Below, one piece after another: positions 9,880 through 14,174 of a stretch of DNA of 64,000 nt. A model generated the notes under the pieces. It was not told the origin of the DNA, did no database searches, and was given only the letters and a program-made list of their open reading frames with translations. The DNA is taken from the NCBI GenBank assembly GCA_948603215.1, contig CAPECJ010000002.1, forward strand, positions 171,805-235,804. The letters are read 5' to 3'. Numbering within the stretch: position 1 is the first letter of the stretch; each line of letters opens with the position of its first letter. The position numbers and the translations under genes were made by a program. This stretch comes from an uncultured Alistipes sp. (GTDB taxonomy: Bacteria; Bacteroidota; Bacteroidia; Bacteroidales; Rikenellaceae).

Positions 9880-9887
9880 CAAAGATA
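9880..9887 (-). promoter_or_regulatory. Bacteroidota -7 promoter element for dapB-lepB-yigZ-uvrA operon
   Basis: TATCTTTG on the minus strand (TAnnTTTG consensus). Confidence 0.6.
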
Positions 9888-9988
9888 GCGATTTCACCGC
9901 GAATTTCATAAACTTTCCCGAATAACGTATTGAAAGTTGAAATGTTGTTTCCGGCGACATGAAAGTATGTTTTGTCCGGCGTTTTTGC

Positions 9989-9996
9989 TAACTTTG
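9989..9996 (+). promoter_or_regulatory. -7 promoter element for truA
   Basis: TAACTTTG, 5 nt upstream of the ATG. Confidence 0.6.
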
Positions 9997-10001
9997 CGGT
10001 C

Positions 10002-10772
10002 ATGCGTTACTTCGCTGAATTGAAATACGATGGTGCCGCTTATTGCGGATGGCAGCGGCAACCTGACCAACCGACCGTGCAGCAGACGCTCGAACGAGCG
10101 TTGTCGACATTGTTGCGGACATCGACCGAAGTGGTCGGTGCAGGACGCACCGATACGGGGGTCAATGCCTCCTACTATGTGGCTCATTTCGACGTTGCTG
10201 AACCGATAGCCGATATACGACAGTTTCTTCGCAAGCTCGATTTTCTGTTGCCGCCCGACATTGCCGTCAGTTCGTTGACACTGGTTTCCGATGCAGCGCA
10301 TGCCCGTTTTAGTGCGCGTGAACGCGAGTATCGTTATTTCATCGAGCCGCACAAGAATCCGTTTACGCGCGGCGGTTCGTGGCAGTATTACGTGCCGTTG
10401 GACGTGGTCCGCATGAATGAAGCGGCGGCCATGTTGTTGGAATTCGACGATTTCACTTCATTCGCCAAACTCAATTCGAACAATCATACGAATATCTGCC
10501 ACGTCCGGCGGGCCGACTGGATAATAGAACCCTCTGGAACGCTGTGTTTCACGATCCGCGCCGACCGTTTCCTACGAAATATGGTACGGGCAATTGTCGG
10601 CACGTTGGTCGATGTCGGTCGCGGTCGTTATTCGCCCGAGGAGTTCCGAGCGATCATCGCCAGTCGCGATCTCTCGCAGTCGAGTGCCGGAGCTCCCGCG
10701 CAGGGGCTATTTCTGAGCGATGTGAGCTACCCTCCCGAGGTTTTTACCAAGGTGAATTTTGCAAATAAGTGA
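10002..10772 (+). CDS. truA: tRNA pseudouridine(38-40) synthase
   Basis: YDGAAYCGWQRQP, GAGRTDTGV, HARFSA and FLRNMVRAIVG motifs. Confidence 0.96.
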   Translation: MRYFAELKYDGAAYCGWQRQPDQPTVQQTLERALSTLLRTSTEVVGAGRTDTGVNASYYVAHFDVAEPIADIRQFLRKLDFLLPPDIAVSSLTLVSDAAHARFSAREREYRYFIEPHKNPFTRGGSWQYYVPLDVVRMNEAAAMLLEFDDFTSFAKLNSNNHTNICHVRRADWIIEPSGTLCFTIRADRFLRNMVRAIVGTLVDVGRGRYSPEEFRAIIASRDLSQSSAGAPAQGLFLSDVSYPPEVFTKVNFANK

Positions 10773-10821
10773 AAGTTGAAGCCATCCGCTGAGGGGTTAA
10801 AGGCGAACGATCCTTTCTATC

Positions 10822-10866
10822 GCAATCAAAAAGGCAGAAGCTTATTGCTTCTGCCTTTTTGATTGC
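10822..10866. terminator. Bidirectional intrinsic terminator
   Basis: Perfect 20-bp inverted repeat GCAATCAAAAAGGCAGAAGC-ttatt-GCTTCTGCCTTTTTGATTGC between convergent genes. Confidence 0.85.
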
Positions 10867-10877
10867 TTTCGGGAGGA

Positions 10878-12059: not shown

Positions 12060-14114
12060 TTAGTTGAGCTGACTCAAGGGAATAGCATAGAGGCACAGCC
12101 CGCCTACACGGTCGATGATGAACAACGTGTTGTGGCGGATCAGACATTTGGCCGGATTGTTCAGCTTGATGTCGCCGATGGTGGTCAGGTTCTTGATTAT
12201 CTTGCCCGTCTTGGGATTCACTTCGCAGAACTTCTCTTCCGTTTCCTTTCCTTCGAACGAGACGAACAGGCGGCCGTCGGGGCTCCAGGCCGCACCCAGC
12301 GGGCTGGCTTCGAAGACCAGTTCGGTGCCCGTGTTCAGCTTGCAGGCTCTCATGTGACGGGGGTCTATCAGCACCAGTTTTTTCGAATGGTAGTTGATTT
12401 GATAGACGTTGCCTGCAAAATCGGCGGTCATAGTGTTGTTGCTGTGTGCACCTAAATCGTTGCTCGATGCCATGTAACCATGGGCAAGATCGTGCTCGGG
12501 GAAAGCTCTCACAATGCCTCGGGATGCGTACAGCGTACCGTTGGTTGCAGCCAGGCCCACGGCGTCGAATCCCAGACCCAGCGTAGCGGTGCACTCGTAG
12601 GTTGCGGCGTCGAATTCGAAAAGCATGTTGTTGCTGCCGCCCAGATAGATCTTGTCGTGCGTGCGGATGATTTCTGCCGGAGTGCCGATTTTTTGTTCAT
12701 TGCCGTTGGGTAGCGTCCATTTGGTGAACTGCTTTTCGTGTACGGGCTTTCCCGTCGACAGATCGTAGACATCCCACGTGAAATTGCCCCGACGGATGTC
12801 GTTCGTCACATACATCTTGTTGCCGTATACATAGACGCTGCGCGGCATGTAATTTTTCTGTTCTACGCCCGCGTCGTTGTAGTCCAGTCTGAACGAGAGT
12901 TCGGGAGCGTCCTTTATTTCGCCCCAGTCGGTATCCAGAAAATCGTTGCCTCGGGCCAGACCGCCGTCCATTTCGTCGAGTTCGGGGTCTTCGATCACGT
13001 ATTTCGACGACCGGTAGTATCCGCCGCCGGGCAGGTAGGCAGTTTTGGAGTGGCGGCTGTGGAGGAAGCGGCGCGAGTAGACGGGCAGTTTCTTGGCCAG
13101 CGCCAATTCTTCGTACACTTTGCCGCACAGCGAGGGCCATCCGGGCCCCGTCTGTTCGTAGGTCATGTTGCCCGCATGGCCGTAGCCCAGGCAGTGGGCA
13201 TATTCGTGGAACATGGTTTCCGTGATGCTCGAATCGTCCGGGTATTGTTCGAAATAGACCGATTCGTGCATGCCGAACGTCTCGCCGCCGCCGAGTCCCA
13301 TCACTCCGGTGGTGTAGCCGAAGACCAGACCGCGGTGGCCGATCGCCTGCTTGAGCAGGGTTTCCTTGTTGATGAGCGTCAGGTTGGCGTTCGAGTGGAG
13401 CGGGCCCCAGCCGTTGAGTTCCGCGGCGAATTCGGGGCTGGAGTACATGTAGGCCATGTTCAGCGCCATCGCCACGCCTTCGCGGGCATGGCAGGCGTGC
13501 AGCGGATAGGCCCAGCTGGTCTGATTGGGGTTGTAGCGGCCGAAGCGGATGTGCCAATGGCAGGTGATCGCCTGTAGCGTTTTCCAGTAGGTAGCGTCGC
13601 TTTCGGCCGTCAGCGTGATGTTCTCCTTGGTCAGGTGAGGATTGGCCATGATCCGGATTAGCTTGCCGCTACGCGTTGCCGCCGTGATGTCCTGCGTGGC
13701 AAATGGCAGTTCCATCCGGAACTGGTGAAATGGCATGATCTTTTCGAAGACGAAGATTTTGAATTCTTCTTCGTAGCCCTCGATCTTGGCCCATACGGTC
13801 ACGTTCGGAAGCGCGCGCGGGCTGTAGAAGCGAAGCTGGAAGCAGAGGTTGTCGTCTACGGTCAGCTGCAGCGGCTGGTCGGTGTAGAACCAGCGTTCGT
13901 TGGTGTTGAAGAATACTTCCGACGGTTCATCGTCGTTAAGCATGTAGTAGGTGTTCTCCCCGTTGTAGTCGGACGTCGACAGACGAATGGGAAGACCGTC
14001 TGCAAATTTGTCGGTGATTTCATCGGGCGAAAGGCTCTCTTTTGTGCACCCGATCAGTAGTATAATACTGATTATCAGCCCCCCCCCGAGGTTTGAGGTG
14101 AAAAATCTTTTCAT
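12060..14114 (-). CDS. Lipoprotein with zinc metallopeptidase (HExxHxxGxxH) domain and C-terminal beta-propeller
   Basis: Lipobox LIGC, GLGGG motif, HEYAHCLGYGH (13176-13208), followed by propeller-like repeats (PRSVYVYGNKMYVT, PLGAAWSPDGRLFVS). Confidence 0.8.
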   Translation of the reverse strand: MKRFFTSNLGGGLIISIILLIGCTKESLSPDEITDKFADGLPIRLSTSDYNGENTYYMLNDDEPSEVFFNTNERWFYTDQPLQLTVDDNLCFQLRFYSPRALPNVTVWAKIEGYEEEFKIFVFEKIMPFHQFRMELPFATQDITAATRSGKLIRIMANPHLTKENITLTAESDATYWKTLQAITCHWHIRFGRYNPNQTSWAYPLHACHAREGVAMALNMAYMYSSPEFAAELNGWGPLHSNANLTLINKETLLKQAIGHRGLVFGYTTGVMGLGGGETFGMHESVYFEQYPDDSSITETMFHEYAHCLGYGHAGNMTYEQTGPGWPSLCGKVYEELALAKKLPVYSRRFLHSRHSKTAYLPGGGYYRSSKYVIEDPELDEMDGGLARGNDFLDTDWGEIKDAPELSFRLDYNDAGVEQKNYMPRSVYVYGNKMYVTNDIRRGNFTWDVYDLSTGKPVHEKQFTKWTLPNGNEQKIGTPAEIIRTHDKIYLGGSNNMLFEFDAATYECTATLGLGFDAVGLAATNGTLYASRGIVRAFPEHDLAHGYMASSNDLGAHSNNTMTADFAGNVYQINYHSKKLVLIDPRHMRACKLNTGTELVFEASPLGAAWSPDGRLFVSFEGKETEEKFCEVNPKTGKIIKNLTTIGDIKLNNPAKCLIRHNTLFIIDRVGGLCLYAIPLSQLN
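14079..14087 (-). repeat. G9 homopolymer tract inside the signal-peptide coding region (codons 10-12, Gly-Gly-Gly)
   Basis: Nine consecutive C on the plus strand; reads CTC GGG GGG GGG CTG on the coding strand. Confidence 0.95.
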
Positions 14115-14166: not shown

Positions 14167-14174
14167 CAAAGATA
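14167..14174 (-). promoter_or_regulatory. -7 promoter element for the metallopeptidase/propeller operon
   Basis: TATCTTTG on the minus strand, about 50 nt upstream of the ATG. Confidence 0.6.

Follow-up and report, generated by a model that had tools for sequence, protein, structure and literature searches.

The switching of genes by slippage in short repeats is a textbook mechanism known from pathogens, and multi-locus, repeat-driven "phasomes" have been described mainly from these organisms. In Neisseria and Haemophilus, poly-G tracts are found in genes for outer-membrane receptors and lipoproteins, e.g., hmbR, hpuA, and lgtA/C. Campylobacter jejuni, another carrier of such tracts, lacks mutS and mutL. 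According to Bayliss et al. 2012 (PMC3401435), the poly-G/C contingency genes of this bacterium include about 29 tracts with a modal length of nine, which is attributed to a length-dependent insertion/deletion bias. Phase variation in gut Bacteroidales has been ascribed to DNA invertases, which act through invertible promoters on the capsules and SusC/SusD proteins of Bacteroides (review PMC11868660). No description of repeat-driven (poly-G) phase variation in Alistipes or Bacteroidales was found in the literature searched. Here we analyze a run of nine G's (G9) in the signal-peptide codons of a gene, named P0001, that encodes a 684-amino acid (aa) lipoprotein precursor and is located in a 64,000-nucleotide stretch of DNA (the window) from an uncultured Alistipes sp. 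The window corresponds to C2:171805-235804 of genome G000 (GenBank assembly GCA_948603215.1), a 1.9-Mb assembly of 50 contigs with a G+C content of 54.5%. We conclude that the run is quite probably a slipped-strand translational ON/OFF switch, with the gene in the ON state at present and a probable polar effect on the gene located downstream.

The G9 tract and its shifted reading frames

The minus strand at the 5' end of P0001 reads ATG AAA AGA TTT TTC ACC TCA AAC CTC, nine G's, CTG ATA ATC, and the encoded protein starts with the sequence MKRFFTSNLGGGLIISIILLIGC, in which Gly10-12 are specified by the G run. The original prediction, made from the DNA of the window, located the run at codons 10-12 (GGG GGG GGG) of the lipoprotein gene and considered it the longest homopolymer noticed in any coding sequence. 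The run is found at this position as a C9 on the plus strand, and no other homopolymer in the window reaches nine nucleotides. Its length is above the minimum of about 7-8 nt taken here for a homopolymeric contingency tract in the 5' part of a reading frame. The consequences that had been predicted by hand for a slip of one nucleotide in either direction were reproduced by simulation. The frame with eight G's reads GGG GGG GGC TGA and stops immediately, and that with ten G's continues for approximately 20 codons before it ends with GCC CGA TGA, the TGA being codon 32 (product sizes in Table 1). Both frames end before the lipobox, and neither gets to Cys23. No alternative start that could rescue the G8 or the G10 frame was found in the host genome. 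The next in-frame start of P0001 is Met58, which is located past the signal peptide, and translation from it would produce a protein without an export signal.

In the proposed switch, slipped-strand mispairing at replication would add or remove one G in the run. With nine G's the gene would be ON, leading to the synthesis of a lipidated, probably surface-exposed protein composed of a metzincin-type metallopeptidase and a β-propeller. With eight or ten G's translation would stop after 12 or 31 codons, respectively, and the gene would be OFF. An OFF allele would probably lower the expression of the downstream gene, P0002, as well, since both genes share the only promoter motif.

Tract-length alleles among natural strains

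Tract lengths were compared between assemblies, at the assembly level, using alleles from short-read metagenome assemblies. The commonest allele in the species of the window (P0123, locus L046) has nine G's and shows 9 mismatches with respect to the window over approximately 2,650 nt. Look-up of the Met58-truncated product of this allele led to loci from three sequencing runs (L047-L049) that include ten G's and are otherwise 100% identical to L046 over 2,583 bp. The full-length product of this allele is indexed in 757 blocks of the collection vs. 34 for the Met58-truncated product. The Met58-truncated product of the exact protein encoded in the window was not found on look-up, and JGI metagenome contigs scanned for the exact flanks of the window with a variable G run between them gave no match. 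A divergent strain within the 90% cluster of the window protein has ten G's.

Length variation is also present in related species. For the sister species of G024, whose protein shows 84% aa identity, nine G's are found in the representative genome and ten in three other assemblies, which align over up to 3,179 bp with a single gap and no mismatch; another, different strain has eight. In a second sister species eight G's are found in at least 11 contigs, which represent one clone (0-1 mismatches), and G9 is the majority allele. Tract length is the sole difference over kilobases in two cases. The tract is, therefore, not invariant but polymorphic in length between otherwise identical natural strains, both within the species of the window and in the sister species of G024. 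The strain comparison supports the original prediction of a phase-variable contingency locus.

The strain with eight G's in the sister species of G024 (L016) includes an ATG located about 10 nt 5' of the annotated one and in another frame (MNDGKSFCQNFRGG...). This upstream ATG restores a 693-aa lipoprotein precursor, P0156, with a different n-region, and two of the three tract lengths, or frames, may be productive in this sister species. The species of the window has no second upstream start of this type. A different kind of variation was observed in L039, a sister-species locus with the allele P0137, where the nine G's are followed by TGG, coding for Gly-Gly-Gly-Trp, and not by CTG as in the other alleles; the P0137-type and the other alleles have a 3-nt in-frame difference beside the tract.

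Conservation of the homopolymer

The representatives of three species have an uninterrupted G9 in spite of the divergence of the flanking codons, and no mixture of synonymous Gly codons is found in its place. At least four species have the G9 at this locus. Of the Gly codons in the host genome GGG is the least used (13%), and GGG GGG GGG was seen at five of the 226 tri-Gly sites, with 0.5 expected. An ortholog with 57% identity and the same gene neighbors is devoid of Gly10-12 and includes a G9 of its own at codons 18-21 (GTG GGG GGG GGA), which sits in a different codon phase and still within the signal peptide. Homologs from other genera do not have the three glycines. The maintenance of G9 across species, the use of a rare codon, the relocated G9, and the absence of the tri-Gly sequence in other genera, taken together, argue for selection acting on the run itself, as suggested by these alignments, rather than on three glycines.

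G9 tracts in the host genome and in Alistipes

The P0001 tract is one of many G9 tracts that are found throughout the host genome and the genus. The numbers of G/C runs in G000 are 54, 5, 4, and 27 for lengths 6, 7, 8, and 9, respectively, and there are no runs of ten or more nucleotides. The spike at length nine (Poisson P(≥27 | λ=4) ~4e-14, where λ is the count at length 8) cannot come from composition. Seventeen G9 tracts lie inside long open reading frames (ORFs), eight of them within 150 nt of the start vs. 1.6 expected (P 4e-5), and the sense strand includes G rather than C in 15 of these 17 intragenic tracts. The genes that carry tracts code for eight SusC-like TonB-dependent receptors, two family-2 glycosyltransferases, one acyltransferase-3, a sulfatase-family protein, M16 and M20 peptidases, and several lipoproteins.

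While the genes with tracts in G000 are mostly in frame at nine G's, at least four G9 loci (C3:13724, C3:167359, C7:106651, and C14:17322) have a long ORF only when the tract is taken as G8 or G10, and a G8 tract (C13:1659) has one only at G9. A family-2 glycosyltransferase gene and an M20 peptidase fusion are among the out-of-frame genes. These genes are candidate OFF switches that annotation would call pseudogenes. A common flanking motif or an origin from mobile elements was considered for the G9 tracts of G000 and rejected, as their flanks share no motif. The tracts at C5:87872 and C11:48153 have near-identical flanks, which correspond to paralogous SusC 5' ends. Orthologs of two other tract genes were also searched for: the SusC-like gene on C8 gave only paralogs (≤47% identity), and a DUF5017 lipoprotein gene with a G9 had no match in five relatives. 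Four poly-G/C runs are located at up to about 60 nt from contig ends, at C10:6-14, C11:48153-48161 (C11 is 48188 nt long), C14:55-62, and C14:18762-18768 (C14 is 18824 nt long). Their location suggests that assemblies break at poly-G/C tracts.

Exact-G9 runs were found in 60 of 61 Alistipes genomes. The numbers of G7, G8, G9, and G10 runs are, in this order, 27, 40, 124, and 2 in G004; 3, 16, 100, and 9 in G011; and 9, 18, 91, and 1 in G069, all three being complete Alistipes genomes. The corresponding numbers are 6, 7, 65, and 12 in G047 and 10, 8, 36, and 2 in G024. No run of 11 or more was detected in these five genomes or in G000. In genomes from 80 other Bacteroidales families, one per family, the number of exact-G9 runs is mostly 0-6 and never above 24. 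A peak at nine accompanied by shoulders at eight and ten is what would be predicted from slippage by ±1 around a preferred length. A limit of nine imposed by the assembler was rejected because G10 occurs in other assemblies and in complete genomes. In G069 and G004 long segments of the chromosome have their G9 runs on the plus strand and others have them on the minus strand, a pattern suggesting that tract orientation follows the direction of the genes or of replication.

The encoded protein

The amino acid sequence of P0001 has the characteristics of a lipoprotein precursor, which include an MKR n-region, an LIISIILL h-region, and the lipobox L-I-G-C23. All 47 homologs compared have Cys23. 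The mature protein begins with CTKESLSPDE and those of orthologs with CTDE, CTNE, or CTADE, and the acidic residues that follow the Cys are suggestive of a lipoprotein export signal. The protein is probably lipidated and exposed on the cell surface.

A sequence search revealed a match between residues 64-345 of P0001 and PDB 9tpb_A, named "metzincin" (E 2.4e-17). The extended metzincin motif HExxHxxGxxH is present, and HEYAHCLGYGH-GNMTY of P0001 aligns with HEFGHVAGYGH-GNMTY of 9tpb. Residues H303, E304, H307, G310, and N316 are invariant in the 47 homologs, H313 is conserved in at least 90% of them, and M317, the candidate Met-turn residue, which is part of the GNMTY motif aligned in 9tpb at the sequence level, is nearly invariant. 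The AlphaFold model (pLDDT 89.6, with residues 1-36 disordered) consists of a β-sandwich followed by a helical catalytic domain and a C-terminal β-propeller. The fold search related the C-terminal 280 residues to the propellers of YncE, the Bacteroides surface lipoprotein BtuG, and NHL domains; propeller matches dominated its results and no protease fold was listed, and the protease assignment is derived from the sequence. These comparisons support a metzincin-type metallopeptidase fused to a YncE/BtuG-like β-propeller as the putative product, and they are in agreement with the label of surface metalloprotease proposed earlier for this gene.

Neither P0001 nor the downstream P0002 had a significant match to a family in Pfam or NCBIfam, and a literature search with "9TPB" found no paper. 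All named homologs of P0001 are from Alistipes, with more distant ones in Rikenella, Bacteroides, Phocaeicola, and Butyricimonas. PDB 9tpb, which like 9tpc is named "metallopeptidase, metzincin", shares with P0001 the HExxHxxGxxH motif followed by GNMTY, but these structures and the propellers 8ptd, 8ptf, and 3vgz have only about 25-30% identity to it. None of the solved structures among the matches joins a metzincin and a propeller in one lipoprotein, as is the case for P0001.

Promoter region and neighboring genes

The features of the locus are shown in Table 1. On the minus strand, the next -7 motif after that located 5' of P0001 is found at 9880-9887 and there are none between, which indicates that P0001 and P0002 are probably co-transcribed. 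With one -7 motif serving both genes, it is plausible that an OFF allele is polar on P0002. The -7 motif is likewise conserved 5' of the orthologs, and these have also kept their neighbors, lpdA upstream and the propeller gene downstream. No inverted repeats flanking the P0001 promoter were detected, the repeats found being a palindrome inside the -7 motif and repeats within the coding region of the upstream lpdA. An invertible-promoter switch for P0001 was therefore ruled out. In the region 3' of the two-gene unit (9888-10877 of the window) there is a plus-strand -7 motif at 9989-9996, and a plus-strand ORF that ends at 10772 runs convergent with P0002.

Table 1. Location of the features of the P0001 locus in the window
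Feature	Position	Strand	Remarks
684-aa ORF P0001	12060..14114	-	Lipoprotein signal, N-terminal β-sandwich, metzincin-like catalytic domain, C-terminal β-propeller
Signal peptide with lipobox	14046..14114	-	Codons 1-23: n-region MKR, h-region, L-I-G-C23
G9 homopolymer, candidate slippage tract	14079..14087	-	C9 on the plus strand; codons 10-12 (GGG GGG GGG) of the lipoprotein precursor
TGA closing the G8 frame	14075..14077	-	12-aa product
TGA closing the G10 frame	14020..14022	-	31-aa product; G10 alleles found in L047-L049
Zinc-binding motif HEYAHCLGYGH	13176..13208	-	Residues 303-313; aligns to HEFGHVAGYGH of 9tpb
Bacteroidetes-type -7 promoter motif TATCTTTG	14167..14174	-	About 53 nt 5' of the P0001 ATG
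387-aa lipoprotein gene P0002	10878..12041	-	β-propeller-like; 18 nt past the P0001 stop; likely second gene of the unit

Alternative explanations

Some of the observations weigh against a phase-variable switch. The variants all come from short-read metagenome assemblies, several of them with 3-9x coverage, and homopolymer miscalls are possible in such data. The OFF alleles are a minority, representing ~4% of those in the species of the window and ~10-15% of those in the sister species, and nine G's are found in each of the three species representatives; the switch may accordingly be slow, or the ON state strongly favored. As the G8 contigs of the second sister species belong to a single clone they count as one event. 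Slippage should be rarer in the presence of the mutS and mutL genes, both of which are intact in the host genome. The support consists of comparisons between assemblies of different strains. We infer slippage as the cause of the length changes, their reversibility and rate, the surface exposure of the product, the polarity on P0002, and a selective agent that could be phage, host immunity, or niche.

Assembly quality is the basis for one alternative, in which the G8 and G10 alleles are sequencing or assembly errors and the tract, where GGG codons were used by coincidence, codes for a stable Gly-Gly-Gly sequence in the signal peptide. The short-read origin of the variants and the low coverage (3-9x) of some of them are in line with it, as are the G9 of all three GTDB species representatives and the predominance of ON alleles (757 vs. 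34 blocks). It is nevertheless quite improbable, as the identical G10 allele recurs in three independent runs with perfect identity elsewhere, and G8 recurs in at least 11 contigs. Errors also leave unexplained why every species has the same rare codon three times in succession, why a second lineage has its G9 elsewhere in the same signal peptide, and why a spike at nine with shoulders at eight and ten is found in complete, isolate-grade genomes. The view that the shifted alleles are ordinary, one-way loss-of-function mutations, i.e., pseudogenization at a mutational hot spot and not an evolved reversible switch, accepts the variants as real and is compatible with OFF alleles being a minority and with homopolymer frameshifts being the commonest inactivating mutations. 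Purifying selection, however, should in that case break the run with the synonymous codons GGC, GGT, or GGA, and the run has instead been kept in at least four species and re-created elsewhere. Since, in addition, the OFF alleles are free of secondary lesions (0 other differences over 2.6-3.2 kb) and dozens of surface-protein genes have the same architecture, we regard pseudogenization as very improbable.

Slippage could also act mainly at the level of RNA. Transcriptional slippage would then yield a mixture of G8, G9, and G10 mRNAs, and expression would be dialed down or leaky and not heritably switched. A run of nine G's is long enough to cover the RNA:DNA hybrid in RNA polymerase, and for this reason the tracts would be expected to slip in transcription too. 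The intact mismatch repair genes mutS and mutL, the presence of at least four G9 loci of G000 that are out of frame at nine, and a length that is sharply nine at about 100 loci per genome regardless of coding state, which hints at a length-specific molecular driver, also speak for this mode. RNA polymerase slippage, on the other hand, is best documented for A/T runs. The heritable DNA length variants of natural strains suffice for ON/OFF switching, and a modal length of nine is found as well in C. jejuni, where slippage of DNA has been proven (PMC3401435). An RNA-level mechanism as the main mode is thus improbable, and slipped-strand switching at the DNA level remains our preferred explanation for the P0001 tract. 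An extension of it, which combines both levels, is unlikely in its entirety. According to it the genus Alistipes as a whole would have a contingency system consisting of about 100 loci, in which a molecular driver and not per-gene selection holds the tracts at nine G's and slippage in transcription overlays a leaky, non-heritable switch on the heritable ON/OFF one. Such a system would operate in a mismatch repair-proficient commensal and would for the most part have taken the place of the invertase switches found in related Bacteroides.

Comparison with known phase-variation systems

The P0001 locus, the 27 G9 tracts of its genome, and the 91-124 found in complete genomes indicate that poly-G switches like those of Campylobacter exist in an abundant genus of gut commensals, where their targets are nutrient receptors, surface enzymes, and glycan-modifying genes. 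As a consequence for annotation, "frameshifted pseudogenes" of Alistipes may be OFF switches. The way in which strain variation and the escape from phage or immunity are read from metagenomes is affected as well. Alistipes can also be considered a second, independent modal-nine system for asking what sets tract length.

The resemblance to C. jejuni includes intragenic poly-G tracts that are often near 5' ends, surface-structure genes as targets, a large number of loci, a modal length of nine, and ON/OFF switching by slippage of ±1. The differences are that Alistipes is a gut commensal of the order Bacteroidales with intact mutS and mutL, that its length distribution is much sharper, runs of 11 or more being absent from six genomes, and that complete genomes have three to four times more tracts. 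The cargo is also different, consisting mainly of SusC-like receptors and lipoproteins and not of genes for capsule, lipooligosaccharide (LOS), or flagellar glycosylation. The systems of Neisseria and Haemophilus have in common with P0001 a homopolymeric ON/OFF tract in the 5' coding region of a surface-protein gene in a host-associated bacterium proficient in mismatch repair. They belong to another phylum, and the tract of Alistipes, a putative switch, lies inside a lipoprotein signal peptide and codes for Gly10-12. The invertase systems of Bacteroides occur in the same order, act on the same kinds of targets (SusC-like receptors and surface glycans), and have the same presumed purpose, but the switch of P0001 would be a frameshift in the coding region of a gene whose promoter has no inverted repeats.

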